A DNA stretch of 64,000 bases, taken from NCBI GenBank assembly GCA_028874365.1, contig JAPPJZ010000018.1:80435-144434 (forward strand), read 5' to 3'. This document shows, piece by piece, positions 2,597 through 48,457 of this stretch (within the stretch, counting starts at the first letter, position 1; every line of letters starts with the position of its first letter). Made by a program: the position numbers and the translations under genes. The notes beneath the pieces are model-generated. The model was given only the letters and a program-made list of their open reading frames with translations, did not search any database and was not told the origin of the DNA. This stretch comes from Chloroflexota bacterium (GTDB taxonomy: Bacteria; Chloroflexota; Dehalococcoidia; Bin125).

Positions 2597-3700
2597 ATGT
2601 CCGATCGCGACAACCGAGCCATTCGCCTGACCGATCTGGCGCGTTGCGGCGGTTGAGGATCGAAGTTTGGCCCCGAGGGGCTGGCTCACGTGCTGAGTCA
2701 TCTCGGTCCGCAGTTCCCGCCCGCCGAGCACCCGGAGTTGCTGGTTGGTCTGGCGCGCCCCGACGACGCCGCGGTGTACGCGATCGACGACGAGCGCGCG
2801 CTGGTGCAGACGCTCGATTTCTTCGCTCCGCTGGTTGACGACCCGTATCAGTTCGGCGCGATTGCCGCGGCGAATGCGATGTCCGACGTCTATGCGATGG
2901 GCGGGCGCGTGCTATTCGCGCTCAATATTGCTGCGTTTCCCGAGGACCTGCCGCCCGACGTGATCGCGGATGTGCTGCGCGGAGGGGCCGACAAGGTACG
3001 CGAGGCGGGCGCCGTCGTCGCCGGCGGACACACGATTATCGACGAAGAACCGAAGTACGGTCTCGCTGTGACCGGAGAGGTTCCCCGCGACCTGATCCGC
3101 ACGACCGGGGGAGCGCAGCCGGGCGACACGATCATCCTGACGAAGGAGATTGGCACCGGAGTGCTGATCGGCGCGAACCAGCAGGGGGCGGTTTCGGAGG
3201 AGCACTGGGACGCGGCGATCTCGCAGATGATGACGCTCAATCGCGACGCGGCGGAGGTGTCGTCCCAGGGGGACCTCGCCGCCGGGGTGCATGCGATTGC
3301 GGACGTGACGGGCTTCGGGCTCGCCGGACACCTGCACGAGATGGCAGAGCTGAGCGATGCGGCGATCGAGATCGACCTGGGCGCGGCGCCGGCGCTGGGC
3401 GGCCTCTCGGAGGCCGTCGCTGCGGGATTCGGCAGCGGCGGCCAGGGTCGGAACCGCGAGTACTACGGCGCTCGCCTGACTGTCGTTGGCGGCCGGGAAC
3501 TGACGGCGTTCGAGGAGGCGCTGCTGTACGACCCTCAGACGTCGGGCGGGTTGCTGATTTCGGCGGGGATCATCGAGGCACCGCACCTGATTCACGACCT
3601 GCAAGAGCGTGGCGTCGGGGCGACGCCGATCGCGCGGGTGACGGAGGCGGCCGAGGGTGGCCAGCTCGTCGTCAAGCCGACTCACACGCCGCGGGTTTAA
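2597..3700 (+). CDS. selD: selenide, water dikinase SelD (selenophosphate synthetase) with in-frame TGA (Sec) at 2654-2656
   Basis: Translation from ATG 2597 (GGAGG Shine-Dalgarno upstream) gives MSDRDNRAIRLTDLARCGG-U-GSKFGPEGLAHVLSHL. This aligns with E. coli SelD [25 protein letters not shown], with U at the Cys17 position and the Lys conserved. Downstream PurM-like domains are in the same frame as the 2690 ORF. Confidence 0.8.
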
Positions 3701-9144: not shown

Positions 9145-9170
9145 GGGTTCGATTGTCGCATAGGTGGGGA

Positions 9171-9240: not shown

Positions 9241-9521
9241 CCGATCGAGTCGGGGAACCGGGAGTGTGGCGATTGGGGTCTGGGCCCCGCATCGAGTGCG
9301 GGGCATCGGGCTATTGCTGCCCAGGAGCCCCCCCTCTGTCTCTACGAAACATCTCCCAGTCGGCCGGTTGAATCATTCCCGACCGTGTGTACCGCCTGAC
9401 ACTGCGTTCCAGCCTCGGCCCCACCCGACTCGAGCCTCGATACAATGAGAACATCTGCGCGACTCAGTTCGGGAAAGCCAGGCTTCGATGCCGCGAAAAC
9501 ATCCAGACCTCGACCGAGACA

Positions 9522-11819: not shown

Positions 11820-12050
11820 CGGTGCGCGTACTGACGGCTCGGCAAGTCAACCGGATCCTGGAATGACAGGGATTCGTTCAGACCCGGCAACGCGGGAGTC
11901 ACCGCTGCTACCGGGGTGTTGTTGGCGGTCGCACCCGACTCGTCACGGTTGCACAGCACCGCGACATCCCTCCAGACACACTCAGAACGATCATCAAACA
12001 ATCCGGTCTCCCGAGCGACCTCTTCCGTTAGGCCGCATATCCTCCCTTTC

Positions 12051-22206: not shown

Positions 22207-22650
22207 TCACGCCTCGGGATGCGCCGCGAGCCAGTCGGCGAACTGGGCGCGACGTTGCTGCATCTGTGATTGGTCGTCACTGCCGCGGATGTAGTCGGCC
22301 CAGTCCGTGACGGTGCCAGGCAACGCTGGCGGCGGGCCGCCTTGCAGGCCGGCGGTGGGACGCTGCCTGGTTGCGAGCGACAGCGATTCAGCCTCGCGGG
22401 CGAGCTCTTCGCGGACCGTGGCCTCGCGCTCGCGAGCCGCACGTTCGGCGATTAGATCGCGCCATGTATTGGCGACCTCGTCCGGCTGGTCCGCTGCCGA
22501 CAAGCGGTCGCGCTCCGTGTCGGAGAGTTCGCCGATCGCGTGCAGCATCGCCTCGCGCAGGGCGTTGCCGTCGGCGTCGTTCGACGCCCCGATCTCGCGG
22601 TCGGGCGGCGGCTCCGGCTCCTGCGTCGCGGTGAGTTGAGAATTGTCCAT
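22207..22650 (-). CDS. acidic hypothetical protein (scaffold-like?)
   Basis: Acidic, helical, E/R-rich (AERAAREREATVREELAREAE). Lies upstream of the capsid-like gene. Confidence 0.35.
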   Translation of the reverse strand: MDNSQLTATQEPEPPPDREIGASNDADGNALREAMLHAIGELSDTERDRLSAADQPDEVANTWRDLIAERAAREREATVREELAREAESLSLATRQRPTAGLQGGPPPALPGTVTDWADYIRGSDDQSQMQQRRAQFADWLAAHPEA

Positions 22651-22669
22651 ACGTGCCTCCAAACAAAAC

Positions 22670-22701
22670 GAGCGCCGACGAACAATGTCCGTTCGGCGCT
22701 C
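22670..22701. promoter_or_regulatory. stem-loop (9-bp perfect stem, 14-nt loop) in a divergent intergenic region
   Basis: GAGCGCCGA-cgaacaatgtccgt-TCGGCGCTC. Confidence 0.3.
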
Positions 22702-22857
22702 GGAGGCGCGCGGTCCGTGGCGTTGATATGTCGAATCTACGTGCTAGTCGGCAAGAACACAAGTTCTCGATATGTTGCGCCGAATACAGTTAGCGGATCG
22801 CATACCTGCATTAGGACGACGGCAGGAGGTCGCAGAGCCTGCCTATATCCTGTGCGA

Positions 22858-25272
22858 ATGCTCAACGACACCCGGATTCTCGACCTGACCGACGAACCAC
22901 TCGCGCTCGGCGCTCGGATGCTGGCGGACATCGGGGCGGACGTCGTTCGCGTCGAAGACGTGCGCGGAGACGATCTGCGGATGCGCGAGCCGGCGATCGG
23001 CGGAGACGCTCCACGGGTCGAACGCGGCTGGGCGCACCTGTTGTACAACGCGGGCAAACGCTCGGTCGCGGTGGATGTGGATGACCCGGCAACGTGGACC
23101 CGTATCGAGGCGATGCTGCCGCAGTTCGACGCGGTGCTTGCGCCGCTGGAGCCATCGGGGGCGCTGTCTGCATGGCTGGAGGGCGGACGCAACGGCGAGT
23201 GGTCTTCCGAGATACCGGTCGTCGATGCGGAGTTCCGCCGAGCCGCGAATGAACCGATGACCGACCTGACTGCGATGGCGGCAGGCGGACATGTGGTGCT
23301 TAACGGACATCCCGAGGATCCGCCGGTCTGGCCGGCCGGCAACCTGTCGCACAAGCAGGGCTCGATCGCGATGGCCGAGGCGGCGATGGCGCTGATCATG
23401 CAGCGCCGCCGGGGCGGCGGCGTCGGCCGGATTACGGTCGGCATGCAGGAGGCGGTCACGTTCACCACGCTGCAGACGGCGAGTGGCAACTGGTGGACCT
23501 GGCACGGCACATCGCCGAGCCGGCACATCCCGATTGGTTCGGGCGTCACATTTCAGGCCAGGGACGGTCACTGGCTGTCGTTCACCATCCATCCGCCGCA
23601 CTGGTACCGCTTCGTCAACTGGGTCGACGAGGTGCTGGGGCTCGCGGAGGACGAGTTGCGCGGCGAGGATTGGGACGATGAGTTCTGGCGCGAACAGCAC
23701 CAGCCCGAGATCGTGCCGTGGATCGATCGGCTTTGCAAAGCGCTCACCGTCACGGAGCTGCACGACACAGGCCAGGAACTCGGCCTGCTCGTGTTGCCGA
23801 TCAATACGGTCGAGGAAGTCGCCAACGATCCGCACCTGATCGCTCGCGGGTACTACCAGTCGGTCGACCATCCCCAACTCGGAACCAGCCTGATCCTTCC
23901 GCGCTCTCCGATCCGAACCCGCGGCGAACAGCCCCGAGCCAGACGAGCCCCCACCCTCGGCGAACACACCGACGAGATTCTTCAGACCTCCCCCTCCGCG
24001 GTGCGGCGGAGGGAGTCCGTTCCCAGCCGCGCGTCAGTCCTGTTCAACGGCGCAGCGCCACCACCGAGGCGCCCGCTCGACGGCGTCCGCGTGCTCGACT
24101 TCACCTGGGCGATCGCCGGATCGCTTGGTACGCGGCTGCTGGCCGACCTCGGCGCAGAGGTGTTGAAGATTGAGTCGGAATCGCGGATCGACCCGATTCG
24201 CTACCGCGGCGTGCAGCCTCCTGACCACTTCTCGATCAACACCAACGGCACGTTCAATGACTGCTCCGGCGGCAAGAAATCGGTCACGCTCAACCTGAAG
24301 ACGGAGGAGGGCATTGAGGCCGTCCGCGAGCTGGCCAGGCATGCCGATCTCGTGACGTCGAACTACACGCCCTATCGGCTCGACCGCTGGGGCATCGGCT
24401 ACGACGACCTGCGCGAGATCAAGCCCGACATCATCGTCTGTAACGTGGCGGTGATGGGCATCGAGGGTCCGCGGGCTGAGTGGCGCTCGTACGGCAACGG
24501 GATCGTCGCCATGTGCGGACTCGCGCAGCGCTCCGGCTTCCCGGGCAAAGCGCCGATCGGGCTGGGCACGCTGCACACCGACTTCACGGTGCCCTACTAC
24601 CTGGCGACCTCGGTGATGGCGGCGCTCGACCACCGTGAGACCACCGGCGAGGGCCGCTATCTCGAGATCGCCCAGTACGAGACGGCCGTGCAGCTGCTCG
24701 ACACGGAGCTGATCGAAGCCCTCAACGGCGGCGGCGAGCGTCCGCGGATGGGCAATCGATCGCCCTTCATGTCACCGCATGGCGTCTTCCCTGCCTCCGG
24801 CGATGAACGCTGGATCGCGATCGCCTGCCGCGACGAGTCGGACTGGCGCAACCTCTGCCGGGTGATCGGCCGCGCCGACCTCGCGTCGAGGCCGGAACTG
24901 GACTCGCTTGCCGGCCGTCAGGCCAACGAGGACGAACTAGAAGCTGCGATAGCCAACTGGACCCGAACCCAGGACGACTGGACCTCGTACCGACTGCTGA
25001 TCAACGCCGGTGTCCCGGCCAGCCCGATCGAGCGGCTGGAAGACTTCTTCGACGGCCAGGACCGGGCAATGCGCGACAACTACAACCCGGCCGATTCGCC
25101 CGAGGGCTGTACGTTCCAGATCCAGCAGGAGCCGATCCTCTGGGACGGGGAGCGTCTGCCCGCCGTCCGCGCGCCGATCTGGAGCGAGCACACCGAGGAC
25201 GTGCTCAAAGGCCTGTTGGGCTACAGCGACGAGGACATGACTCGCCTGGCCGCGGCTGGAACGCTTGGCTAG
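22858..25272 (+). CDS. fused tandem family III CoA-transferase (two CaiB/BaiF domains in one about 804-aa polypeptide)
   Basis: Domain 1 begins MLNDTRILDLTDEPLALGARMLADIGADVVRVE. Domain 2 begins DGVRVLDFTWAIAGSLGTRLLADLGAEVLKIES. The ORF-track start at 22540 is a non-coding upstream extension. Confidence 0.75.
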   Translation: MLNDTRILDLTDEPLALGARMLADIGADVVRVEDVRGDDLRMREPAIGGDAPRVERGWAHLLYNAGKRSVAVDVDDPATWTRIEAMLPQFDAVLAPLEPSGALSAWLEGGRNGEWSSEIPVVDAEFRRAANEPMTDLTAMAAGGHVVLNGHPEDPPVWPAGNLSHKQGSIAMAEAAMALIMQRRRGGGVGRITVGMQEAVTFTTLQTASGNWWTWHGTSPSRHIPIGSGVTFQARDGHWLSFTIHPPHWYRFVNWVDEVLGLAEDELRGEDWDDEFWREQHQPEIVPWIDRLCKALTVTELHDTGQELGLLVLPINTVEEVANDPHLIARGYYQSVDHPQLGTSLILPRSPIRTRGEQPRARRAPTLGEHTDEILQTSPSAVRRRESVPSRASVLFNGAAPPPRRPLDGVRVLDFTWAIAGSLGTRLLADLGAEVLKIESESRIDPIRYRGVQPPDHFSINTNGTFNDCSGGKKSVTLNLKTEEGIEAVRELARHADLVTSNYTPYRLDRWGIGYDDLREIKPDIIVCNVAVMGIEGPRAEWRSYGNGIVAMCGLAQRSGFPGKAPIGLGTLHTDFTVPYYLATSVMAALDHRETTGEGRYLEIAQYETAVQLLDTELIEALNGGGERPRMGNRSPFMSPHGVFPASGDERWIAIACRDESDWRNLCRVIGRADLASRPELDSLAGRQANEDELEAAIANWTRTQDDWTSYRLLINAGVPASPIERLEDFFDGQDRAMRDNYNPADSPEGCTFQIQQEPILWDGERLPAVRAPIWSEHTEDVLKGLLGYSDEDMTRLAAAGTLG

Positions 25273-25851: not shown

Positions 25852-27177
25852 CTAGGGAATGTCGGGGTCGTAGTCCATCCCGATGTGTCCGCGCTCGCGG
25901 AGGCCTTCGATCTCCGACTCGGAGTAGCCCAGCACCTTGCGGTACACGTATTCGTTGTCTTCGCCCAGCGCGACCGCGGGCTTGCGAATGCTGAGCGGCG
26001 TCTCGGAGAATCTCATGAACGGCGTGTTGTATCGGAACGAGCCGATGTCATCGAAGAGATGGTGTGCTTCGTTGAGGCGTCGATGCTGCACATGGCGATC
26101 GTCGTAGATGCGGGACGAATCCAGCACCGGCGCCGCCGGCACGCCGTGCGATTGCAACAGATGCATCAGCTCGTAGTCGTCCTGAGTCGATGTCCACTCG
26201 CCGATTCGCGCGTCCAACTCGTCGTGGCGCTCGAGCCTTCCCGCTTCGCGCCGCAGTTCGGGACCGCGGGCCCACTCGGGGTCGCCCATCGCCGCTCGCA
26301 ACCCGAGCCAGTGGTCGTCGTCCATCACCGAGATCGAGATCCAGCGGTCGCCACCGTCGGAGCCGTCGCCGTTCGATTTGGCCGGGTACAGGCTGTAGGG
26401 CGCGTGACCGTTCACGGATCGGTTGCCGATGCGTTGCTGAACCACGTCATTGAGCGAGTAGTCCATGAACGCCTGGGCGAGCATGCCGCCGGCGCATTCG
26501 GCCTGGGCCAACTCGATGAACTGTCCCTCACCGGTCCGCCGACGATGGCGCAGCGCCGCCATGATCGCGAAGGCAGCGTGCGCGCCGGCGACGTAGTCGC
26601 CGGAGAAGATCGGGGAGATGTAGGACGGGTCGAGGTCGGGATAGCCGCGGAGCAGCGTGTGGCCCATCACGGACTCGAGATGCACGCCGAGCGCCCTGGC
26701 GAATCGGTAGGGACCGTCTGAGCCATAGGCGGGCATCCGGAGCACGACGATGTCCTCGCGGGCGTCACGCAGGAAGTCGGGGCCGATGCCCAACTTCTCC
26801 AGCGTGCCTGAGGCGTTGTTCTCGACGAGGGCATCGGATTTCTCGACCAGGTTGGCAAAGATCTCGCGGCCTTCGTCGGAGATCAGGTCGACGGTCATCG
26901 AGTGTTTGTTGCGAAACTGCTGCACGAAGGTTGGGGAGTAGTTCCAGGGCCGCGGACCGGGTTCCGCATTCGGGTAACCCGCTGCCCATCCCGCCCCCGC
27001 TTTGACCATCTCGGCCGAGGGACGAGCCTGACCGCCGCGGGTCATCGGTTGCCAGACGTGGACGTTCTCAACCTTGATCACCTCAGCGCCGAGGTCGGCC
27101 AGCAGCGTGGTGCCGAACGTCCCCGCCCAGACGACGGTCAGGTCGATGATGCGGACGCCCTGAAGCGGCAATGGCAT
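25852..27177 (-). CDS. family III CoA-transferase (CaiB/BaiF)
   Basis: MPLPLQGVRIIDLTVVWAGTFGTTLLADLGAEVIKVE. Confidence 0.8.
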   Translation of the reverse strand: MPLPLQGVRIIDLTVVWAGTFGTTLLADLGAEVIKVENVHVWQPMTRGGQARPSAEMVKAGAGWAAGYPNAEPGPRPWNYSPTFVQQFRNKHSMTVDLISDEGREIFANLVEKSDALVENNASGTLEKLGIGPDFLRDAREDIVVLRMPAYGSDGPYRFARALGVHLESVMGHTLLRGYPDLDPSYISPIFSGDYVAGAHAAFAIMAALRHRRRTGEGQFIELAQAECAGGMLAQAFMDYSLNDVVQQRIGNRSVNGHAPYSLYPAKSNGDGSDGGDRWISISVMDDDHWLGLRAAMGDPEWARGPELRREAGRLERHDELDARIGEWTSTQDDYELMHLLQSHGVPAAPVLDSSRIYDDRHVQHRRLNEAHHLFDDIGSFRYNTPFMRFSETPLSIRKPAVALGEDNEYVYRKVLGYSESEIEGLRERGHIGMDYDPDIP

Positions 27178-27754: not shown

Positions 27755-28972
27755 TCATCCTACCACTCCTGAGCGCCGCAGTTCGGCAACCTCCCCGACC
27801 CCAATCCCGCACTCAGACAGAACCTCGTCCGTATGCTCGCCGAGCATCGGCGGCGGACGCCTCAGCGACCACGGTGACGCCGACATCATGAACGGTCGGC
27901 CGGGGATCTGGACATCGCCCAGCTCATCGTGAGTTGCGGTCGCCCAGAAGCCTCGATCGCTGAAGTGCGTGTCCTCGAACAGCTCGTCGACCGAGAAGAG
28001 CGGGCCGCAGAGGACCTTGGCTTCGCGTGCCTCGGACCAGATTTCTCGCTTGGTGCGCTCCAGAGACCAGGGCAGGAAGTGGGCGTTGAACTCCTCGACC
28101 AGCTCCGGATTGACGCCGGCTCCCGGGCGCCACCACTTCTCGTCCTGCAGCCACTCGGGGCTGCCGAGCATGTCGTCCAGGCGCGGGATGCGGATCGCCG
28201 CGCCCGAGAACTCGACGTAGCCGTCGGCGCACGGATAGACGCCCGAGAGCATGCCCGCTGCCGGACCGGGGGGCCGCAGCGACTTGCGGCCGGCATACTC
28301 CCAGCCCATGGTTGCGGCGTGGCGACGGTCGACGCCGTTGAACTGCGCGTCGGCCATGGCGAAGTCGACGTGTTGGGCGATGCCCTGCAGCTCGGCCGAG
28401 GTCAGCGCGCCCATCGCGGCCGTTGCCGCCGCCGATCCGCACTCGACCAGTGAAGCCGTGCCGTACATCTTGACCGGCTCGCGATCCTGCACGCCGATCG
28501 AGTACATCTCGCCCGCGAATCCATACAGCACCAGGTCCGAGACGCGGTAGTCGCGGTAGGGCGAGTCGTGGCCGAACGGTGTGATCGAGACCATCGGCAG
28601 ATCGCTGCGCCGCGACTTGACCTGCTCCCAGCCGTAGCCGAGCGCGTCGAGCCGACCGGGCGGCTGCGACTCGACGACGATGTCCGCCTTTGCGATCAGC
28701 CGCTCCATCACCGGCCGCGCCTCGGCCCGTTCCAGGTCGAGTACGAGCGAGCGCTTGTTGGTGTTGAAGTAGAAGAACGTCCCGGAGCGCTCGGGTCCAC
28801 TGATGTCCTGGTACCACGGGCCGACGGACCGCGACGGGTCTCCGCCGGGGGGCTCGACCTTGACGACATCCGCGCCGAAGTCGGCAAACAGCTTGGTGCA
28901 ATAGGGGCCGGCGATGTGCTCGGTGATGTCGAGGACGGTGATGCCATCGAGCGGGCCGGTTGGGTCGGGCAT
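27755..28972 (-). CDS. family III CoA-transferase (CaiB/BaiF)
   Basis: LDGITVLDITEHIAGPYCTKLFADFGADVVKVEPPGG. The start may be 28996 or 28972. Confidence 0.75.
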   Translation of the reverse strand: MPDPTGPLDGITVLDITEHIAGPYCTKLFADFGADVVKVEPPGGDPSRSVGPWYQDISGPERSGTFFYFNTNKRSLVLDLERAEARPVMERLIAKADIVVESQPPGRLDALGYGWEQVKSRRSDLPMVSITPFGHDSPYRDYRVSDLVLYGFAGEMYSIGVQDREPVKMYGTASLVECGSAAATAAMGALTSAELQGIAQHVDFAMADAQFNGVDRRHAATMGWEYAGRKSLRPPGPAAGMLSGVYPCADGYVEFSGAAIRIPRLDDMLGSPEWLQDEKWWRPGAGVNPELVEEFNAHFLPWSLERTKREIWSEAREAKVLCGPLFSVDELFEDTHFSDRGFWATATHDELGDVQIPGRPFMMSASPWSLRRPPPMLGEHTDEVLSECGIGVGEVAELRRSGVVG

Positions 28973-29115
28973 GAGTCGGAGTGTAGGGGCACACACAACG
29001 ACGGCAGTCGAGTACTTCGATCCTCGATCTGAGACGGTCTCGCCCGTTCTCCCTAGCGAACAACGTGCGCTTGCAATATAGAACGGATCATCGATAGCGG
29101 GTCTATGCTGGCCGC

Positions 29116-29346
29116 ATGGTTACGACGAATCCGATCCTGCGTATCCGCAGGGCGTTGCGCTCGGTCGGCGCCAGCGCCGATCAGGCCGACGAGTTTGCAA
29201 GCGCGATCGACGAGATCTACGTCAGTCGGGAACAGTTCGAAGACCGGATCGGCAGGATGCTTGCAGACCACCGCCGGCAGTTGCTCCTGGAGATGATCGT
29301 GATCGTGAGCATCGCTGTGGGCGTCATTCTTGCGGTTCTGGCGTAG
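29116..29346 (+). CDS. small C-terminal TM-anchored protein, unknown function
   Basis: 76 aa ending LLLEMIVIVSIAVGVILAVLA. Confidence 0.3.
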   Translation: MVTTNPILRIRRALRSVGASADQADEFASAIDEIYVSREQFEDRIGRMLADHRRQLLLEMIVIVSIAVGVILAVLA

Positions 29347-29595
29347 AAGGCTGGCCCGGCTACGACTGCGTTGCGGCTCCCGCTGAGATCGCGCCGAATC
29401 AAGAGCCCTTGCGCGAGCGGCTTCCGTACCATCCCGGACTGCCACCGCTGGTGTGCGAGCACATGCTTCACCACCGAGGCGAACGTAGCATGATGGTGAC
29501 GGGCACGAATCGCTGTTGGTCCCGCGCCCAGGCTGGGAACAGACATCTGCGCGGCAGCTCCATCACAACGGGGAGCTCCTGGAAAGAGGCTCTTG

Positions 29596-31260
29596 ATGAC
29601 CACGGCACTCGACAGCGTTTCCGCGGTTTCTGACTGGTACGTCGACGCACTCGCGGCGGCGAGTCCGAACATGGCGACGGCGCTGGGGATTCCGGGTCGA
29701 GAGACGGAGCTGACCGACTATTCGCCGGACGGTCACGCGGAGCGGACAGGGATTCGGCGGCAGGCGGAGGCGGCGCTGCGGCTGCTGAACATCGAGACCG
29801 AGCGGGATCGCGTGGCTCGGGATGTGATGCTGGAACGGTTCGCTTACGAGGCCGAGCTGGAGGATCAGCAGGAGCATTTGCGCTCGCTGAACATCCTGGC
29901 CTCGCCGCTGCAGAACACTCGACAGGTGTTCGACCTGATGCCTCGGGAGACGGAGGAGGACCAAGCGAACATCGTGGCGCGGATGGGGGCGGTGCCGGAG
30001 GCGCTGGAGCGGTATCGGTCGTCGCTGGCGTCGGGGATGGCGCAGGGGATCGTGGTGGCGCAGCGCCAGGTGCGTGGCGCGGTGGAGCAGTGCCGGGTGT
30101 GGTCGGGCGCGGGCGAGGGCGCATCGTTCTTCCGCGGGCTGTGCGACTCGCTCGGGATCGAAGGCGGCGACAACGTGACGGCGGCGGAGCAGGGCTATGC
30201 CGCGATGGGCGACTGGCTGGAGCGGGAGTATCTGTCCAATGCGAATCCTCGCGATCCGGTGGGTCGGGAGCGCTACCAGGCGGCGTCGCGGGGGTTCAAC
30301 GGGATCGAGCTTGACCTCGATGAGACCTACCAGTGGGGCTGGGAGGAGGTCTGGCGCATCCAGTCGGAGATGGCGGCGACGGCGGAGCGGATCTCGCCGG
30401 GCGCGTCGGCGGCGGAGGCGATTGCGATCCTGGAGTCGGACGATGCGCGCGCAATTGTGGGTGAAGACGCCTTCCGAGACTGGATGCAGCAGACGCAGGA
30501 CGAGACGATGCAGGCGCTTCTGGGCACGCACTTCGATATCGCCGAGCCGGTGCAGCGGATCGAGGCGATGATCGCGCCACCGGGCGGGGCGCTGGCGATG
30601 TACTACACGGGGCCGTCGGAGGATTTCTCACGTCCCGGTCGGACGTGGTATCCGACCGGCGGCGAGACGCGCTTCCCACTCTGGCGCGAACTGTCGGTCT
30701 GCTACCACGAGGGCGTGCCGGGGCACCATCTGCAGATTGGCACGACGCGCTACCTCGGCGAAGAGCTAACTCGCTATCAGCGCCTGCTGGCGGGGACGTC
30801 GGGTTATGTCGAAGGCTGGGCGCTGTACGCCGAGCGTCTGATGGCCGAGCTGGGCTACCTGGAAGATCCGGCCTACTACATGGGTCTGCTGAGCAGTCAG
30901 GCGCTTCGGGCGGTGCGGGTGGTGATCGATATCGGCATGCACCTGGAGTTGCCGATCCCGGAGCAGGAGGAGTATCACGGCGGCGAGACCTGGACGCCGG
31001 AGCTGGCGCTGCCGTTCCTGATCGAGCGCTCGTTCTTCCCCGAGAAGATGCTGGCCAGCGAGGTCGATCGTTACCTGGGCTGGCCGGGTCAGGCGATCTC
31101 GTACAAGGTCGGCGAGCGCGAATGGCTGGCCGCTCGGGAGGCGGCCCGCGAGGCGCTAGGCGACGCGTTCGATCTGAAGAGCTTCCACAAGGCGGCGCTG
31201 GATCTGGGACCGATGGGTCTGCAGCAGCTTCGCGATGAGATGTCTCGGCTGCGAGGTTGA
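29596..31260 (+). CDS. DUF885 family protein (putative metallopeptidase-like)
   Basis: YHEGVPGHHLQIG motif typical of DUF885; 555 aa. Confidence 0.7.
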   Translation: MTTALDSVSAVSDWYVDALAAASPNMATALGIPGRETELTDYSPDGHAERTGIRRQAEAALRLLNIETERDRVARDVMLERFAYEAELEDQQEHLRSLNILASPLQNTRQVFDLMPRETEEDQANIVARMGAVPEALERYRSSLASGMAQGIVVAQRQVRGAVEQCRVWSGAGEGASFFRGLCDSLGIEGGDNVTAAEQGYAAMGDWLEREYLSNANPRDPVGRERYQAASRGFNGIELDLDETYQWGWEEVWRIQSEMAATAERISPGASAAEAIAILESDDARAIVGEDAFRDWMQQTQDETMQALLGTHFDIAEPVQRIEAMIAPPGGALAMYYTGPSEDFSRPGRTWYPTGGETRFPLWRELSVCYHEGVPGHHLQIGTTRYLGEELTRYQRLLAGTSGYVEGWALYAERLMAELGYLEDPAYYMGLLSSQALRAVRVVIDIGMHLELPIPEQEEYHGGETWTPELALPFLIERSFFPEKMLASEVDRYLGWPGQAISYKVGEREWLAAREAAREALGDAFDLKSFHKAALDLGPMGLQQLRDEMSRLRG

Positions 31261-32113
31261 TGTCGTGAGGCGTCTGCTGCTGGTTCCGCTGACCCTCGTG
31301 TTGCTTGCGGTCGCCTGCGGCTCGGGCGACGAAGCGCGGCCCAACACGGGCACCGCAACGTCGGAGCGGGCCGAACGTCAGGCGACGGTCGCTCAGCAGC
31401 AGGAGGCTGCAGTCCAGGAGGACGCGGAGGCTGTCGAGGCTGGCCAGGAGACTCAATCGATTCAGCAGGTGCAGCAGCAGCAACAGTCCGCTGTCGAGGT
31501 TGAACAGCAGCACCAAATTCAGCCGACGCAGGAAGAGACGGAAGGCGAGGAACAGGTCGACGAACTGCCTTCCGAAATCGTGGGCGTGCACAAAGGTGTG
31601 CGCTCGGAGCGGAATGTGCTCGGCGAGCCGGATGCGCCGGTGGAGATCCGCTACTTCGGCGACTTCACTTGAGGCGGCTGTCAGTGGTTCGCGGCTCAGG
31701 TTGAGCCGCTGATCGTCGAGCGACTGGTCGCGACCGGCAAGGCCCGCTTCGTCTTCCGTCACTTTCCCGTTCGCGGCGACGCGGCGGACTTTGCAGCCTA
31801 TGTCGTCGAGTGCGCAGCCAATCAGGGCGCGTTCTGGCCGCTGCACGACCGCTATATGGCCGGCGATGAGACGCTGTTCACAGAGGCGGGGCTGCGCCGG
31901 CAAATCACGTTCGAAGGACTCGACTATGCCGAGTTCGTGACATGCATGACCGAGGGTCACACCGTACCGACGGTGATGGCCTCGCGCGCCGAGGGGGAGT
32001 CGCGCGGCGTCGCGGGCACACCCACGGTCTTCGTCAATGGTGAGCACGTCGATGCGACGTTTGAAGCGATCGAAGCGGCCGTCGAGCAAGCGCTGACCGG
32101 AGCCAACCAGTAA
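31235..32113 (+). CDS. DsbA-like thiol:disulfide oxidoreductase lipoprotein, selenoprotein paralog 1 (U-GGC active site; TGA at 31670-31672)
   Basis: Signal/lipobox LLAVACGSG and a Q/E-rich linker. IRYFGDFT-U-GGCQWFAAQVEP aligns with the DsbA F-x-D-F-x-C-P-x-C motif. The downstream region is in frame with no stops to TAA 32111-32113. An alternative GTG start lies at about 31265. Confidence 0.7.
31691..31709 (+). promoter_or_regulatory. SECIS-like hairpin 19 nt downstream of the in-frame TGA of paralog 1
   Basis: GCGGCTCA-ggt-TGAGCCGC, perfect 8-bp stem with a G/U-containing loop. Identical to the paralog 3 hairpin. Confidence 0.45.
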
Positions 32114-32160
32114 TCGGGTTCGTCACTTCGACGCGAGAGCAGTTCGAGTACTCTCGGATC

Positions 32161-32994
32161 ATGGGACGCTACCGGTGGCTCGTTGTCCTGGCGCTGGGGA
32201 TGGGGATGGCGGTCGCGGCCTGCGGTTCGGGCGGAGGACCGGTCGACCAGGACGGGCAACCGGTGTCCACCGAGACCCCGCGCAGCGAACGAGCCGAGCG
32301 CGAAGCCACGATCATGGAGCAGCAGGCCCAGCAAGTCGCCGGTCAGACCGCGCAGGATGAGCCGGTCCCGGATACTCCGATCGAGTCAGGGGCGGGCGAG
32401 GTCGAGGACGAGGCAGCAGCGAGCGGGGTGATCGACTTCGGCCACCGCGAGGGTTTGCCGTTCGCCCGGAACGTTGTCGGTGATCCTGACGCGCCGGTGG
32501 TGATTGTCGAGTATTCGGACTTCCAGTGACCGAGCTGTCGAAGTTTCGCGTCTCGGTTCGAGCCGCAAATCATGGAAGAAGTGATTCGCACCGGTCTGGC
32601 GCGGTACGAGTACCGGCATTTCATCATCTTCGGCGCGGCCTCGGAGTTTGCTGCAATGGCGACGGAATGCGCGGGCGATCAGGGGGCCTGGTGGGAATTC
32701 CACGACGAGTACCTGTTCGAAGGCCGCGCGCGGACGTTCACCCGCGCTGGGGCGATTGAAATCGCAGAGCGTGAGGGCCTCAACATCGCCCAGTTCACGC
32801 AGTGCATCGATAACGAAGAGCACCGTGATCGCATCCTGCAGATGCAACAGCAAGGCTTCGCTGAAGGCGTCAATGGCACGCCGACGTTCCGAGTGAACGG
32901 CGAGCCGGGCGGGCGTTCGCTGAGCGCAATTCTTGACAAGGTCCACCAGGCTGCGGAGGCAGCCGAGGCCGCAGAAGGGCAAGAGGGAGGCTAA
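32161..32994 (+). CDS. DsbA-like thiol:disulfide oxidoreductase lipoprotein, selenoprotein paralog 2 (U-PSC active site; TGA at 32527-32529)
   Basis: Lipobox AVAACGSG. VVIVEYSDFQ-U-PSCRSFASRFEP is a canonical DsbA C-P-x-C with Sec replacing the first Cys. In frame with 32572..32994. Confidence 0.7.
32548..32566 (+). promoter_or_regulatory. SECIS-like hairpin downstream of the in-frame TGA of paralog 2
   Basis: GCGTCTCG-gtt-CGAGCCGC (7 of 8 bp). Same spacing (+19) and same CTGTC box at +6..+10 as the other two paralogs. Confidence 0.4.
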
Positions 32995-32996
32995 CG

Positions 32997-33902
32997 ATGG
33001 TCAGGATCGGACTGATCGCGGCGGCCCTGGCGCTCCTGGTCGCGGGCTGTGGCTCCGGTGGTGGTGACGCACCGGCATCACAGCCGCAAACGGCCGCGAG
33101 CGTCCAAGCGCAGCAGCAAGAGCAAACGGAGCAATCGGCGACGGCGTACGCGGCCGGCCAGAGCGAATCGACACAGGATCAGGCTCAAGCCCAGGCGTCG
33201 CCTCAGGCCGACCAGCCCACGGCTCAGGCCCAGGCCGGGCAAGCTGTCGGACAGGAAGCCGATCAGCAGACGACGCAGCAGGCGCAGCCGGCCACCGACC
33301 AGTCTGTGGCTGAGCAGGCCGAGAGCGAAGAGCCGGAACAGCAGGCGATGGTCGCTCAGATCATCGAATCTGGTCATCGGGCCGGCCTGGTCGCTGACCG
33401 CAACGTGATCGGTGATCCGAACGCACCGATCGTGATCACCGAGTATTCCGATTTTCTTTGAGGAAACTGTCGCCGCTTCGCGGCTCAGGTTGAGCCGCGC
33501 GTGATCGAAGAGTTGGTTCGCACCGGTCTGGCGCGATTCGAGTATCGGCACATTCTCAACCACGGCCCGCCTTCGGTGGCGGCCGCGCTGGCAACGGAGT
33601 GCGGCGGCGACCAGGGCAAGTGGTGGGACTTCCACGACCACTACATGACGACGCAGGACTTCAGCCGCGAGGGGGCCGTGGCACTGGCCGCCTCGCTGTC
33701 ACTGGACACCGATCAGTTCGCCCAGTGCTTCGATGACCAAACACACCTCGAACTGGTCGAAGGGCAGCATCGCGCCGCGGCCGAGGCGGGCGTGAGTCGT
33801 ACGCCGACGGTGCGGATCAACGGCGAGGGCGCGGCGGTCGTGGCCGACGCGCTGATCGACCAGGTGATGGCGCTGGCCGCCGAACTGGAGGCCGAGGGCT
33901 AG
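32997..33902 (+). CDS. DsbA-like thiol:disulfide oxidoreductase lipoprotein, selenoprotein paralog 3 (U-GNC active site; TGA at 33459-33461)
   Basis: Lipobox LLVAGCGSG and a long Q/A/E-rich linker. IVITEYSDFL-U-GNCRRFAAQVEP. In frame with 33501..33902. Confidence 0.7.
33480..33498 (+). promoter_or_regulatory. SECIS-like hairpin downstream of the in-frame TGA of paralog 3
   Basis: GCGGCTCA-ggt-TGAGCCGC; identical to the paralog 1 hairpin. Confidence 0.45.
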
Positions 33903-33994
33903 CGAAGCCCAACTCGGCCGGGCGATTCTCGGCGTGGTGTGCGATCTGCGTTACCCAGTGGCATCGGCAGGGTTGTGGATAAGCGACCCGCGGC

Positions 33995-34024
33995 TTGACA
34001 AATCCGCTCATAGGTGCTCATAAT
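33995..34024 (+). promoter_or_regulatory. sigma70-like promoter (TTGACA-N18-CATAAT)
   Basis: cTTGACAaatccgctcataggtgctCATAATcgg, about 75 nt upstream of the 34099 ORF in a lower-GC intergenic stretch. Confidence 0.4.
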
Positions 34025-34098
34025 CGGACTTCTTCAAGAACATCCGTACTGTTCGCGCGCTCTGATGCGAACGGCGTTGATGGCTGGAAAGGGTCCGA

Positions 34099-36132
34099 AT
34101 GATGACAACCTTGCACGAGAAGTCGTCGGCTGAGGCGCAAGCGACGGGAGCGATCCTGGCGACCACGCTGTCGGAGGCCGACCTCAACCACATCCTGGGG
34201 CAGCTCGGTGGCGGACGATCCGCGTCGCACGGCGTGCTGAGCCGGTTTTCGGCGCTGCATGAGCGCATCCGGCACCGCGAGTCTCACCTGTACAACGCTG
34301 GCGAAGTCGATCCGAAGTTCCAGGCGCCGCATCTGCAGGCTCAGCCCCGGCAAACCGATCTGCTGCGCCGAACCTGTTCCCAGTTGCGGCAGCGCGTGAC
34401 CGAGCATCCGCTGCGGGTACACGTGGAGCCGCCCGACGACTCACCCTCGGCCCGGCAGGCGGCCGACAACCTCGAGCACGTGTTGGAACAAGGCCTGCGC
34501 CAGGTCGAGGAGCGGTCGCACCTCTCGCTGCAGGCAGACCTCGGTTACGGACAGGTCTGCCTCTGTTTCGGCGTGTTGCACTGGCAGATGTCTCCGCAGC
34601 ATCTGCCGGCGTTGCCCGCCAGAGAGCAGCGCGGCTCGCGGCCACAGGATCCGGAGGATCGGCGGCGCTTCCGCCGCTCGCGTTCCGAGGACGGCCCCTC
34701 GCTGCCCTGGATCGAGACGGAAGAGAGCCGCCGCGACCGCGACCGCCGGCGGCGGGCGGCATCCGGATTCCCCTGGAACGTCGAGGTCATCCGCCCCGAC
34801 CAGTTCGCGTTTGTGGAGGACTATGGCAGCGGCAACGGGCTCGGCATCGCGGCGGTCGTACGCGAGATTGGGCTGTTCGAGTATCGCAGTCGGCTGCGTG
34901 AGCAGGACGGTCTCGAGCTTCGCATGACGGCCATCGCCGGCGACCCGACGCTGGGCATCGCCAGCGGGGTCGATGGACCGCTGCCGGAAGAACCATCGGG
35001 CGCCGGCTGGGGCGAACGCTTGCGCGTCGTCTCGGTCTGGACTCGAAACGAGTACTACGAACTGGCGGCGCTTGCGGGCCACACGCCTCGAGCCCGGCGG
35101 GCGGGCGAGCAGCCGCGCCACGAGTGGACCCTGATCAAGTCGCACCCGCATCCATACGAGATGCCGCCATTCGCGATTGCCGAGGCCGACGTGAACGACC
35201 ATCCAGATATGGTCCGCCGCTGGGAGCCGACAATGGAGGGCATCTATCGCGCGAAGCCGAGCTACGACTACGAGCGCTCGCTGGGGATGTTTCTGGCCGA
35301 GCAGACGGCGATTCCGCTCTACTGGATTCAACTCGCGAACGGCGACTGGCAGACGGACGACGACGGGAACCGGGTGGAAGTCGCCCCGGGCTCGGCTTCG
35401 GCGCAGTCATTGCCCGCCGGCGCGTCGCTGCATCGGGTCGAGTTCCGCGTCGATCCGGCGTTCGTTGAGTTCATGCGCATGTCGCACGACGAGTTACTCG
35501 CGGCCGCGCCGGACTCAGGCGCGATCGAACGCGGTGAGATCGGCCCGAACACGCAGCCGCACACGCTCAACCTGTTGTTGGGCTCAAGGAACCTCCAGGT
35601 CCAGCAGTTGAAGCGGGCGCAAATCGGCGCCGTCCGCACGATGCTGCGCAACATGGCGTTGGTGATGTCGAAGCCACTGACCGAGGGCGGGTTCGGCGCC
35701 CCGATCTGGGTCTTCGCCAAGGGGACGAATGGGCGCGTCCAGCGTCGGGAGACCGTCTGCGTGGAACCGGCCCAGATTCCCTCGCTCGACATCGATGTCT
35801 GGATCGACCCGTACTCCTCCGCGCAGCGAATCGCGGTGCAGGAACACGGACGCGCGCGGCTCAACGACCCGCTCGATCCGCTCGATCAGCGCGCGTATCT
35901 GGAGCAGTACATCGGCGAGGAGCACGCGGAGCAGGTGCTCTCGCGACACCGTCAGTGGCGCGTGGAGCAGGCGCGATTCGACCACGAACTCGCCGCTCTG
36001 CGAGGTGACGGAGACGACGAGGCTCGGCGGAACGGCGATCAGCAGGTACCCGCGTCCAGCCGGCTGCGGGGTCACTTGACGCCGCTGGGCCGGCTGACAT
36101 CGATCGATGACGACCGTACCGCGAATCCGTAG
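34099..36132 (+). CDS. large hypothetical protein (677 aa), unknown function
   Basis: Long uninterrupted ORF with protein-like composition across most of its length. No motif recognised. There is an Arg-rich segment around residues 180-225. Confidence 0.45.
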   Translation: MMTTLHEKSSAEAQATGAILATTLSEADLNHILGQLGGGRSASHGVLSRFSALHERIRHRESHLYNAGEVDPKFQAPHLQAQPRQTDLLRRTCSQLRQRVTEHPLRVHVEPPDDSPSARQAADNLEHVLEQGLRQVEERSHLSLQADLGYGQVCLCFGVLHWQMSPQHLPALPAREQRGSRPQDPEDRRRFRRSRSEDGPSLPWIETEESRRDRDRRRRAASGFPWNVEVIRPDQFAFVEDYGSGNGLGIAAVVREIGLFEYRSRLREQDGLELRMTAIAGDPTLGIASGVDGPLPEEPSGAGWGERLRVVSVWTRNEYYELAALAGHTPRARRAGEQPRHEWTLIKSHPHPYEMPPFAIAEADVNDHPDMVRRWEPTMEGIYRAKPSYDYERSLGMFLAEQTAIPLYWIQLANGDWQTDDDGNRVEVAPGSASAQSLPAGASLHRVEFRVDPAFVEFMRMSHDELLAAAPDSGAIERGEIGPNTQPHTLNLLLGSRNLQVQQLKRAQIGAVRTMLRNMALVMSKPLTEGGFGAPIWVFAKGTNGRVQRRETVCVEPAQIPSLDIDVWIDPYSSAQRIAVQEHGRARLNDPLDPLDQRAYLEQYIGEEHAEQVLSRHRQWRVEQARFDHELAALRGDGDDEARRNGDQQVPASSRLRGHLTPLGRLTSIDDDRTANP

Positions 36133-42340: not shown

Positions 42341-42497
42341 CCAGCGCACTCCTGTGTCCCGGGCTGGTCGATTCGCCACTCCGATTGACCCATAACCTGT
42401 TTCTTGTCTCTGCGTGTTGTGCAGCTGCGCTGCGCGGGCGTGGCAATCCGCTTCAACCAGGCCGGAGGAGTCAGAGTTGCTGAACTTCGCGCTGGTC

Positions 42498-43211
42498 ATG
42501 GCCAAGCGGCATCTGGCCGCCGTTCGAGATCTGTTTCCGATCTTCGCGGTGATCGTCCTGTTCCAGGTGGTCGTCATACGCCAGCCGTTTCCCGATGTGG
42601 TCGACGTGGCGATCGGGCTGGTGTGCGTGATCGTCGGGCTGGCGCTGTTCGTTCAGGGCCTGGAGAGCGGCCTCTTCCCGCTGGGCGAGGCGCTGGCTCA
42701 GGGGATGGCGCAGAAGGGAAGCACGCCCGCGCTGCTGGCGCTGGCCTTCAGTCTTGGATTCGGCACGACCGTCGCCGAGCCGGCGCTGATCGCGGTGGCG
42801 TCCGAGGCGGCTGAGGTGGCGGCGGAGGCACGCTTCATTGGCCGCAGCGAGGCTGCCCAGGACCGCTACGCGCTTGAGTTGCGCATGGTCGTGGCGGTCG
42901 CCGTCGGCCTCGCCATCGTCCTCGGAGTGCTGCGCATCCTGAAGGGTTGGCCGATTCACCGGTTCATTATTGCCGGCTACATCCTGGTCATGGTGATGAC
43001 GGTGTTCGCTCCCGAGGAGATCGTGGGCGTGGCCTACGACTCGGGCGGGGTGACAACCAGCACGATCACCGTGCCGCTGATCACCGCGCTGGGCGTGGGG
43101 CTAGCTTCAGCGATCCGCGGGCGCAACCCGATGGTCGACGGTTTCGGCCTGATCGCGTTCGCGAGCCTCACACCGATGATCTGCGTCCTGGGCTACGGGA
43201 TGGTGTCCTGA
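42498..43211 (+). CDS. DUF1538 family membrane protein
   Basis: [50 protein letters not shown]. Start uncertain (ATG 42498 or upstream TTG). Confidence 0.5.
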
Positions 43212-43993
43212 TGCTGGATGCTCTCGCGCTGTTCGGCGAAACCCTGCTCTACACGCTTCGCGATGTGTCGCCGATCATCGCGATCCTCGTGGTGTTCCAG
43301 GCGGTCGTGCTGCGGCGCAAGCCGCTCAACATTGGGGGCATCATCACCGGATCGATCATGGTGTTGCTCGGGCTCGCGCTGTTCCTGATCGGACTCGATC
43401 AGGCGCTGTTCCCAATCGGCGAGACGATGGCGCGGCAGCTCACGGAGGAAGCACGGACGCTGGGGAGCGCGGTGCGCTGGGAGGACTACTGGCTCGTCTA
43501 TCTCTTCGCCGGAGCGATCGGCTTTGCGACGACCGTGGCCGAGCCGTCGTTGATCGCGGTGGGGCTCAAGGCCCAGGAGGTATCTGGCGGGGCAGTGAAA
43601 GCCTGGGGGCTGCGCATCGCCGTCGCGGTGGGAGTGGCTGTGGGCGTGGCGCTGGGCTGCTTCCGGATCGTGACGGGCACGCCGCTGCCGTGGTACATCG
43701 TGGGGGCTTACGTGATCGTCATCGTGCAGACGTACCTGGCCAGTCGCACGATTGTCCCGCTGGCCTACGACAGCGGGGGCGTCACGACCTCGACCGTGAC
43801 GGTACCGGTGGTAGCGGCCCTGGGGTTGGGACTGGCCGCGAACATACCGGGACGCAGCCCGCTGATTGACGGATTCGGCTTAATCGCGTTCGCCAGTGTC
43901 TTCCCGATCATGACGGTACTAGGCTATGCAATCAGTGCGGACTGGGTGGAACGCTGGCGTAGGCGGAAAGCACGGCAGGAGGTCGAGCAATGA
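43211..43993 (+). CDS. DUF1538 family membrane protein (paralog)
   Basis: [42 protein letters not shown] overlaps the upstream stop. Confidence 0.6.
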   Translation: MLDALALFGETLLYTLRDVSPIIAILVVFQAVVLRRKPLNIGGIITGSIMVLLGLALFLIGLDQALFPIGETMARQLTEEARTLGSAVRWEDYWLVYLFAGAIGFATTVAEPSLIAVGLKAQEVSGGAVKAWGLRIAVAVGVAVGVALGCFRIVTGTPLPWYIVGAYVIVIVQTYLASRTIVPLAYDSGGVTTSTVTVPVVAALGLGLAANIPGRSPLIDGFGLIAFASVFPIMTVLGYAISADWVERWRRRKARQEVEQ

Positions 43994-46950: not shown

Positions 46951-46992
46951 GGCTCACTCCATCAATGAGGTTGGCGGCGAGTTGCGCGCAGT

Positions 46993-48402: not shown

Positions 48403-48457
48403 ATCGACTCCTGTCCGCTGCCGACCGACTCGCTCGAATGCGGTCGGCGCCCCATCA

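Follow-up and report, generated by a model that had tools for sequence, protein, structure and literature searches.

Predicted UxxC selenoproteins of the DsbA-like and DsbG-like types have been on record since about 2005 and form established families (PMC1088965, PMC1794560, PMC13188914), which tempers the novelty claimed in the original prediction for the present locus. The 'DsbA-like protein' from the Sargasso Sea/GOS data (COG2761/PF01323) has a DsbA fold, selenocysteine (Sec) as the first residue of UxxC and a SECIS element with a G in its small apical loop (PMC1088965). The proteins described here share these features. In contrast to that family, they are lipoproteins, and they fit PF13462 much better than PF01323 (99–102 versus 28–47 bits). 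A UxxC 'DsbG-like protein' family was equated with NF041057 in a 2026 review, where it is graded only as 'predicted with high confidence' (PMC13188914). NF041057, the 'Rcas_1661 family thioredoxin-like (seleno)lipoprotein', has a namesake from Chloroflexi and resembles our proteins in its lipoprotein signal, thioredoxin-like domain and U-x-x-C motif. It was the only NCBIfam match of the three genes, covering positions 3–240, 5–229 and 18–229 of the 247 profile positions. The scores of 111.8, 145.1 and 153.7 bits lie below the curated cutoff of 190, and the genes are thus assigned to a sister clade rather than to the equivalogs. Long Q/E/A-rich linkers and the arrangement in a tandem array of three to four genes also set them apart. 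PGAP would leave these genes unnamed, and public records hold fragments of them.

Among proteins of solved structure, those most similar in sequence (E 1e-15 to 2e-6) were DsbA (4pwp/4pwo), BdbD (3eu3) and the M. tuberculosis DsbA (4ihu/4k6x/4jr4). Actinobacterial DsbA-type enzymes are also named MdbA. The extracytoplasmic DsbA-type enzymes of monoderm bacteria, such as B. subtilis BdbD (3eu3), share with our proteins the position of the C-x-x-C motif and the T-P cis-proline loop; BdbD presumably has C-P-S-C, the dipeptide of gene 2. Whereas these enzymes use Cys, are encoded by single genes and have BdbC or VKOR as known partner, the present lineage has a Sec nucleophile and three to four paralogs. 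Multi-domain fused DsbA-like proteins, one with five domains (P0121) and one a lipoprotein with three (P0124), likewise repeat the domain with a varying x-x dipeptide (CYYC, CPYC, CFFC, CPYC, CGFC). In them the copies are joined in one polypeptide and use Cys, whereas in the Sec lineage every copy is a gene of its own and has a separate signal peptide and SECIS.

The locus was analysed within a 64-kb stretch of DNA (the window) from an uncultured member of the Dehalococcoidia. Three tandem genes on its plus strand very probably encode membrane-anchored disulfide-bond enzymes in which Sec replaces the first catalytic Cys. Gene 1 (31265..32113, stop TAA) belongs to paralog group A with the motif GDFT-U-GGC, gene 2 (32161..32994, stop TAA) to group B with SDFQ-U-PSC and gene 3 (32997..33902, stop TAG) to group C with SDFL-U-GNC. 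As had been predicted, sequence and Pfam searches revealed a common architecture, in which a signal peptide with a lipobox is followed by a linker rich in Q/E/A and by a Thioredoxin_4/DsbA domain. The linker has about 87 residues in gene 1 and about 106, Q/A/E-rich, in gene 3. The lipobox Cys codons, read from the sequence, lie at 31316..31318 (L-A-V-A-C-GSG), 32221..32223 (A-V-A-A-C-GSGGG) and 33048..33050 (L-V-A-G-C-GSGGG). A lipobox and low-complexity linker were found in 111 of 115 family genes. For the location, 'extracytoplasmic' fits better than the 'periplasmic' of the original prediction. The start of gene 1 had been placed at ATG 31235 and was replaced by GTG 31265, which aligns with the ATG of orthologues and lies 4 nt past the stop of a DUF885 gene. 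This gene (29593..31260, plus strand, no signal peptide) adjoins the array, as stated in the original prediction; it lies directly upstream and is probably co-transcribed with it.

Each of the three genes is open through one in-frame TGA, with zero frameshifts. The contexts YFGDFT-U-GGC, EYSDFQ-U-PSC and EYSDFL-U-GNC were those originally reported. The TGA codons, at 31670..31672, 32527..32529 and 33459..33461, form the first position of UGGC, UPSC and UGNC, respectively; the assignments derive from the Sec/Cys alignment and, for genes 2 and 3, also from independent assemblies. The Pfam Thioredoxin_4 match spans the TGA in all genes (E 4e-28, 7e-29 and 7e-25 for genes 1–3), as does the DSBA match, and U falls on the first Cys of CxxC. 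PF13462 (Thioredoxin_4) scored 88–102 bits, active site included, at a gathering cutoff of 23.2, and PF01323 (DSBA) scored 28–47 bits at a cutoff of 25.6. At the sequence level, T152 and P153 of the cis-Pro loop were invariant in the alignment (GTPTF, GTPTV, RTPTV). Cys-containing homologues, proposed as a check, were found. In full-length homologues the TGA column corresponds to the first, nucleophilic Cys of EYSDFQ-C-PFC (CPFC/CPYC), and more distant homologues have TGC or TGT at this position, establishing a Sec/Cys pair.

Besides the window, 39 Dehalococcoidia/Chloroflexota species genomes were compared. The family has 115 members, which fall into four groups of paralogs, each orthologous across genomes. 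The Sec position was TGA in 115/115 genes and TGC or TGT in 0/115. The orthologues of paralog group A form a pure clade in the tree. The array counts three genes in the window and as many as four elsewhere in the family, and the same TGAs recur in three independent assemblies. In 65/115 family genes, as well as in the DUF885 gene ahead of the array, TGA is also the genuine stop codon; the recoding is thus local to its context, and the genetic code is not reassigned. Automated annotation indeed reports each gene as two fragments, and the starts called for the C-terminal fragments are not conserved.

Hairpins starting at +19 after the TGA were found exactly as claimed in all three genes. Nominally, each has an 8-bp G+C-rich stem and a 3-nt loop with G first, at 26 nt from UGA to loop. 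The candidate SECIS hairpins are GCGGCUCA-GGU-UGAGCCGC at 31691..31709 in gene 1 (UGA-to-loop distance 26 nt, −14.6 kcal/mol), GCGUCUCG-GUU-CGAGCCGC at 32548..32566 in gene 2 and GCGGCUCA-GGU-UGAGCCGC at 33480..33498 in gene 3 (−16.1 kcal/mol), all on the plus strand. Minimum free energy folding gave 7–9 pairs with the loops GGU, GUU and GGU. The closing pair in gene 2 is G-C where the other paralogs have A-U, a compensatory change. Compared with shuffles, the isolated hairpins had z values of −3.4, −1.6 and −4.1 for genes 1, 2 and 3. Taken alone, the gene 2 hairpin is marginal: it folds at −8.3 kcal/mol (z −1.6) and contains one U.C mismatch. Over the whole 60 nt after each TGA, folding could not be told apart from that of shuffles. 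The hairpins were also compared with the published bSECIS criteria (PMC13188914). All three satisfy these constraints and are among the 110 of 111 distinct family hairpins that do so, compared with only 1/10 Cys homologues. All three genes have the CTGTC at +6..+10 that had been reported as a shared feature. This string is formed by the second active-site Cys codon and its neighbours (xxC-TGT-Cxx) and is not an RNA motif, because relatives vary between CTGCC and CTGTC.

In the family alignment, 93.2% of the hairpin cells were paired, versus 28–40% with the partner strand slid. Double-sided changes occurred at 3/8 pairs (31 cells), and 0/500 shuffles matched the observed covariation score. U-A was exchanged for C-G in 16 sequences or G-C in three and A-U for G-C in six, and G-C was replaced by A-U or U-A. 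These compensatory changes alter the encoded peptide (AAQVEP, ATQVGP, AAQSAP, ASRFEP). We regard the comparative sequence data, namely TGA in 115/115 genes, the pairing excess and the compensatory changes, as decisive evidence that the observed pattern is more than chance. The core reading of three Sec-DsbA lipoproteins, each with a bSECIS hairpin, is supported.

As for the Sec machinery, selD, encoding selenophosphate synthetase (2597..3700, plus strand, TIGR00476 358 bits), is present in the same window, in line with the original prediction. It has its own Sec codon, TGA 2654–2656 (CGG-U-GSK), which indicates that the organism decodes UGA as Sec. Neither the 64-kb window nor the loci compared in relatives contained selA, selB or tRNA-Sec (selC). 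BSepDB includes Dehalococcoidia MAGs that have 46–49 selenoproteins.

The neighbourhood was inspected with respect to function. The DUF885 gene occupies this position in 35/39 related loci. Neither it nor the conserved neighbour of 677 aa provided a functional clue, and their synteny may reflect mere relatedness of the genomes. No redox partner (VKOR, DsbB/BdbC, CcdA/DsbD) was found in the window or in the scanned flanking ORFs, where the flanks are partly annotated. In the genome of one more distant relative, genes for Sec-DsbA proteins and for membrane-anchored cyclophilin PPIase–Thioredoxin_4 fusion proteins are interleaved. This association, seen in one divergent genome only, points to extracytoplasmic protein folding.

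Alternatively, the products could be true selenoproteins with an extracytoplasmic role other than folding, such as DsbG-type repair of sulfenylated Cys, GPx-like peroxide removal, or binding of soft metals and metalloids, for example Hg, Cu or As, at U-x-x-C. Sec has a lower redox potential than Cys and a faster nucleophilic attack, and is characteristic of enzymes with reductive or peroxidatic activity. These properties, the 'DsbG-like' label of the family in the literature and a neighbourhood in which a DsbB or VKOR oxidase was not found would suit such a role. However, the solved structures closest to the proteins belong to oxidases of monoderm bacteria, their relatives occur in clusters with PPIase folding catalysts and as fusions to them, and peroxiredoxin, GPx and metal-resistance genes are absent from the neighbourhood. 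We therefore consider a role outside folding unlikely. A genome-wide reassignment of UGA to Trp or Gly (codes 4 and 25), or non-specific read-through without Sec, is highly improbable. Nothing specific speaks for it, although TGA does occur in coding context. Against it, TGA terminates the majority of family genes and the DUF885 gene, and when the window was scanned for further in-frame TGAs with coding-like flanks on both sides, array genes alone came up, at thresholds that missed gene 3 and selD. Moreover, the TGA stands in for a redox Cys, as is classic for Sec/Cys pairs, and SelD is present. That the TGAs are real stops, and the genes are pseudogenes, artefacts of sequencing or assembly, or two small separate ORFs each, would agree with the two fragments given by gene callers and with a Sec-tRNA or SelB gene not seen in the window, but this reading is effectively refuted and hardly credible given the identical TGA codon in 115 genes, 39 species and three independent assemblies, the amino-acid conservation up to and past the TGA (APVVIVEYSDFQ / PSCR) with no frameshift, C-terminal fragments that have neither signal peptide nor catalytic residue and whose called starts are unconserved, and the conserved, covarying hairpin after each TGA.

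We consider it probable that the three genes give rise to selenoproteins by means of UGA and a bSECIS, and that these are lipid-anchored and perform thiol-disulfide exchange on exported proteins. In each mRNA, the UGA would encode the first residue of U-x-x-C, the active site of the thioredoxin fold, and the hairpin in the coding region would serve as SECIS and recruit SelB with Sec-tRNA(Sec). Sec would then be inserted at the UGA in place of termination. The products would be exported and subsequently lipid-anchored via the lipobox Cys, and the flexible Q/E/A-rich linker of 70–106 residues would keep the domain off the membrane. The DsbA/BdbD/MdbA-type domain would exchange thiols and disulfides on its exported substrates through a transient selenenylsulfide (Se–S) bond, acting as an oxidase or possibly as an isomerase/reductase.

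In summary, what is new is a large, mis-annotated Dehalococcoidia clade with a conserved array of three to four genes. The array consists of ancient orthologous paralogs with differing x-x dipeptides (GG, PS, GN/PN), and redox potential or substrate range probably varies among them. Their function is likely extracytoplasmic thiol-disulfide exchange in protein folding.

Three genes lie head to tail on the plus strand between positions 31265 and 33902. Gene 1 (31265–32113) begins with GTG 4 nt past the stop codon of the DUF885 gene that precedes it, reads YFGDFT-TGA-GGC with the TGA at 31670–31672, and ends with TAA. Gene 2 (32161–32994) starts with ATG, carries its TGA at 32527–32529 within EYSDFQ-TGA-PSC and likewise ends with TAA. 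Gene 3 (32997–33902) also starts with ATG, reads EYSDFL-TGA-GNC with the TGA at 33459–33461 and ends with TAG. From the in-frame TGA to the true stop the frame is uninterrupted in all three genes, in agreement with the read-through to the end of a DsbA fold described in the original prediction, which had been made from the sequence alone. For the Pfam domain search the TGA position was written as cysteine. Thioredoxin_4 matched across the TGA with E values of 4e-28, 7e-29 and 7e-25 (genes 1, 2 and 3), and DSBA likewise in all three proteins, which bears out the proposed fold of the reconstructed proteins, TGA position included. The signal peptide ends in a lipobox (LAVAC-GSG in gene 1, AVAAC-GSGGG in gene 2 and LVAGC-GSGGG in gene 3), followed by a Q/E/A-rich linker of ~70–106 residues. 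A lipobox and a low-complexity linker (20–194 residues) are found in 111 of the 115 family genes. The general description of the genes and the hairpins starting at +19 proved accurate. The CTGTC noted after each TGA is present as well, but as a motif it is trivial: it represents the codon of the second active-site cysteine with its neighbours, and CTGCC alternates with it in relatives.

Homologous proteins were used to assign the TGA position. A search with the gene 2 domain in a large protein collection gave ~65 closest clusters with 62–95% identity, and all but two of these best 65 were fragments of 108–150 aa beginning just past the TGA. Full-length homologues began with P0066 at rank 66 (46% identity) and P0068, and they formed the majority from about rank 76. 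These homologues read EYSDFQ-C-PFC, and in the alignment their first cysteine occupies the TGA column. Thus, the cysteine counterparts that the original prediction had proposed to look for do exist. A conservation scan of GTDB, with one genome per species, returned 58 loci. The related loci L001–L039 all derive from Dehalococcoidia or Chloroflexota MAGs, several of them complete chromosomes of 2.3–3.6 Mb. Within these loci and the window, TGA occupies this codon in 115/115 DsbA-like genes, and TGC or TGT in none. More distant matches of the scan have TGC or TGT at this position; they belong to archaea, Patescibacteria/Parcubacteria, Gammaproteobacteria and one other Dehalococcoidia.

An error at the TGAs is dismissed, as the same three TGAs occur in ERZ25069412 (99.97% identical to the window), in ERZ24894577 (96.3%) and in the Logan assembly of SRR10996926 (100%), three independent assemblies that agree. 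The genetic code is also unchanged, since TGA still serves as the genuine terminator of 65 of the 115 family genes and of the DUF885 gene. We are highly confident that genes 1–3 are genuine selenoprotein genes. A scan of the window for in-frame TGA codons flanked on either side by coding-like GC3 picked up genes 1 and 2; gene 3 and selD fell below the thresholds, three other matches were set aside, and no convincing further candidate emerged in the window. An in-frame stop at 37514 (minus strand) was rejected as a further selenoprotein, because it separates two genes, a small ORF and then recF.

The hairpins following the TGAs were compared with a published model of the bacterial SECIS. With the U of UGA as position 1, nucleotides 22–29 pair with 33–40 around a 3-nt loop. 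The sequence is GCGGCUCA-GGU-UGAGCCGC in genes 1 and 3, and GCGUCUCG-GUU-CGAGCCGC in gene 2. The model comprises a stem of 4–16 bp, a loop of 3–9 nt with G at the first or second position (typically N1-G-[G/U]-N-N2), a UGA-to-loop distance of 16–37 nt and an MFE of at most −7.5 kcal/mol (PMC13188914). All three window hairpins fit, in support of the SECIS nature initially proposed: the UGA-to-loop spacing is 26 nt, the loops start with G, and the energies are −14.6, −8.3 and −16.1 kcal/mol (genes 1, 2 and 3). The model describes 110 of 111 distinct family sequences versus 1 of 10 Cys homologues.

In the ungapped alignment of the 111 sequences, 93.2% of the stem cells were paired, compared with 28–40% when the 3′ partner was slid by 1–3 columns. 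Double-sided changes were observed in 3/8 pairs, from U-A to C-G (16 sequences) or G-C (3); others lead from A-U to G-C (6 sequences) and from G-C to A-U or U-A. The observed covariation score was reached by 0/500 shuffles. Since pairing is kept despite the resulting changes in the encoded peptide (AAQVEP, ATQVGP, AAQSAP, ASRFEP), and since the hairpin-encoded peptide motif is wholly missing from Cys homologues, the comparison indicates that selection acts on the RNA at the hairpin. The first loop nucleotide is an invariant G in the family alignment. Pair 25/37 is mismatched in 26 sequences, as A.C throughout paralog group D and as U.C in window gene 2 and the genes closest to it (columns 31 and 43 of alignment A4; positions 32551 and 32563). 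This internal mismatch may be tolerated in the SECIS stem or have a function there. Folding of the 60 nt from each TGA resulted in z values of only −0.4 to −1.4. Because the sequence has 65% G+C, the energy of this whole stretch is uninformative, and only isolated-hairpin folding and comparative analysis are informative. RNAalifold predicted only the upper 4 pairs from the 111-sequence alignment, and the full 8-bp stem was tested explicitly instead; a conserved lower stem taking in the UGA was not found in this RNAalifold analysis.

The window also encodes SelD with its own TGA codon, as had been stated. The CDS (2597–3700, plus strand) matches TIGR00476 with 358 bits, and the in-frame TGA at 2654–2656 lies in the motif CGG-U-GSK. 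A putative SECIS of selD (within 2654–2713, plus strand) has a 5-bp stem (GGCCC/GGGCU) and a CGAG loop 17 nt past the UGA; a second hairpin comes after it. This putative SECIS is unlike the hairpin type of the DsbA genes, and evidently at least two hairpin types are served by one SelB. Neither selA, selB nor tRNA-Sec was found in the 64-kb window or the fetched related loci. An Rfam gathering scan of the window gave two tRNAs only, with no SECIS family and no tRNA-Sec, and ARAGORN detected no tRNA-Sec in the window or in the 39 related loci. Dehalococcoidia MAGs of the same kind are among the ten most selenoprotein-rich bacteria of BSepDB, with 46–49 selenoprotein genes (PMC13326102).

The 115 genes comprise four orthologous groups: A (GDFT-U-GGC or PFC), B (SDFQ-U-PSC), C (SDFL-U-GNC or PNC) and D (SDFL-U-GGC...ATQVGP), the last of which is not in the window. 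In a distance tree all four are pure clades, with identities of 68–82% within and 35–54% between groups. Therefore, the duplications are older than the split between these genomes, with Sec retained in all four lineages. When 1.84 billion representative proteins were searched exhaustively, the domain proved to be often multiplied by fusion, with 2–6 copies in one polypeptide and a C-x-x-C dipeptide that differs per copy. The active sites of one such protein, P0121, read CYYC, CPYC, CFFC, CPYC and CGFC, copy by copy. Together with P0122, P0123, P0124 and others, hundreds of proteins of 400–1200 aa contain 2–6 fused DsbA-like domains; some copies are degenerate and lack the CxxC.

The DUF885 gene (29593–31260, plus strand) lies directly upstream of the array in 35/39 loci and its product has no signal peptide. 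Downstream, a gene for a 677-aa protein follows in 32/39 related loci, with recF farther on. In the window it spans 34099–36132 (plus strand); the protein has no Pfam match and 57–94% identity among related loci. Only one sigma-70-like site was found in 29000–34400, the near-consensus TTGACA-18-CATAAT (33995–34024), which precedes the 677-aa gene. Because this only site lies after gene 3, the DUF885 gene and genes 1–3 are probably one transcript. The neighbours suggested no redox partner near the array, and selA, selB, VKOR, DsbB and CcdA were absent among the ~40 window ORFs annotated with Pfam. The conserved neighbours, DUF885 and the 677-aa protein, offer no mechanistic clue. At one more distantly related locus (L033; OZ242037.1, 469–5593; 51% identity), Sec-DsbA genes are interleaved with two proteins of ~560–590 aa, each built of an N-terminal membrane anchor, a cyclophilin-type PPIase domain and, at the C-terminus, Thioredoxin_4. 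The active sites of these fusions are CGWC and CYGC, and a Cys-type DsbA lipoprotein paralog (CERC) is also present. These genes make up a compact cluster of extracytoplasmic folding catalysts.

Other genes of the window were recorded. Four genes of CoA-transferase family III share a 17-kb stretch (11916–13235, 22540–25272, 25852–27177 and 27755–28996); the product of one has 910 aa and two matched stretches. A luciferase-like monooxygenase gene is located at 58177–59703. Such paralog expansion is typical of SAR202-type Chloroflexota. A 306-aa protein (5418–6338, plus strand) has a CAP12/Pycsar-effector-type TIR domain (PF10137, E 1.5e-25) and is a possible anti-phage defence component; a 987-aa ORF without Pfam match adjoins it (6343–9306, minus strand). 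A consecutive trio at 44785–49423 (minus strand) encodes proteins of 721 aa (weak VWA and HemN_C matches), 502 aa (an AAA_5 ATPase) and 321 aa (AIR-synthase-related, AIRS/AIRS_C); the last belongs to the superfamily common to SelD and ThiL, yet is not SelD. Two adjacent DUF1538 membrane-protein genes lie at 42414–43993 (plus strand).

DsbA-like selenoproteins had been regarded as predicted only sporadically in metagenome surveys. Such predictions exist: a 2005 study of the Sargasso Sea reported 'DsbA-like' (COG2761/PF01323; 9 sequences) and 'DsbG-like' (COG1651) selenoproteins (PMC1088965). In 2006, DsbG-like selenoproteins followed from genomes, among them that of Symbiobacterium thermophilum (PMC1794560), and a 2026 review ranks 'DsbG-like protein, NF041057, UxxC' as 'predicted with high confidence', with no experimental study of any member of the DsbA-/DsbG-like families (PMC13188914). 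NF041057 ('Rcas_1661 family thioredoxin-like (seleno)lipoprotein') was the sole NCBIfam match of all three window proteins, with most of the profile covered. As their scores of 112–154 bits are under the cutoff of 190, we place the window genes in a sister clade of this family rather than among its equivalog members. We found no literature on selenoproteins in SAR202 or on Rcas_1661. Selenoproteins that combine UxxC and a DsbA fold are thus already known, and the window genes are a clade of a known kind, with modest novelty. What is added here is a large clade of Dehalococcoidia enzymes that are all of the Sec type, a conserved 3–4 gene array, and the observation that each member is broken in two by public gene calls, as was anticipated for the three genes.

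From established bacterial Sec decoding, SelB with Sec-tRNA(Sec) would bind the hairpin when the ribosome arrives at the UGA, and Sec would be inserted. Signal peptide and lipobox suggest that the protein is exported and lipid is attached at the +1 cysteine, with the flexible linker as tether. The nearest solved relatives are 4pwp/4pwo DsbA, BdbD 3eu3 and 4ihu/4k6x, and the T-P cis-proline loop opposite the U-x-x-C site is invariant in the alignment. From the fold and by analogy with these relatives, the site would swap disulfides with exported proteins via a selenenylsulfide intermediate. A folding-catalyst function of the three proteins is reasonably likely. The enzymes may be net oxidases, or else isomerases or reductases. 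Selenocysteine is the faster nucleophile at an active site and an Se–S bond is more reducing than S–S, in line with general chemistry and with what work on synthetic seleno-glutaredoxins reportedly found; therefore, exchange or isomerase activity would be favoured. The differing x-x dipeptides suggest that the paralogs divide labour.

A further-reaching and, in our view, improbable reading is that the array forms a self-sufficient selenium-based extracytoplasmic redox module. The paralogs, which differ in their U-x-x-C dipeptide, would then be graded in function as oxidase, isomerase and reductase. Peroxide or O2 would oxidise Sec directly to selenenic acid, which would in turn promote the formation of disulfides in exported proteins, and no quinone-linked DsbB or VKOR partner would be needed, similar to the GPx7/8-PDI route of the eukaryotic ER. 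Such a module would be compatible with the lack of a partner gene nearby and with the use of Sec by each of the four ancient paralogs.

Folding catalysis remains the preferred function, and the case for the selenoprotein genes is solid. Current concepts are unaltered: a known family is extended, which will not surprise a specialist. For annotation the case is of direct use, as at least 115 genes of 39 species-level Dehalococcoidia/Chloroflexota genomes are stored publicly as pairs of meaningless fragments, which also affects ~65 protein clusters of the large protein collection. A widened NF041057 model, or a sister model beside it, would mend these gene records. With 111 distinct sequences, fixed spacing, an invariant loop G and compensatory hairpin changes that take precedence over the protein sequence, the family is an unusually clean natural data set of bacterial SECIS elements. 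It is also a good experimental entry point. The array of 3–4 lipid-anchored Sec paralogs with differing x-x dipeptides is a ready-made comparison set, which could reveal how Sec affects the redox potential and kinetics of the DsbA fold outside the cytoplasm.
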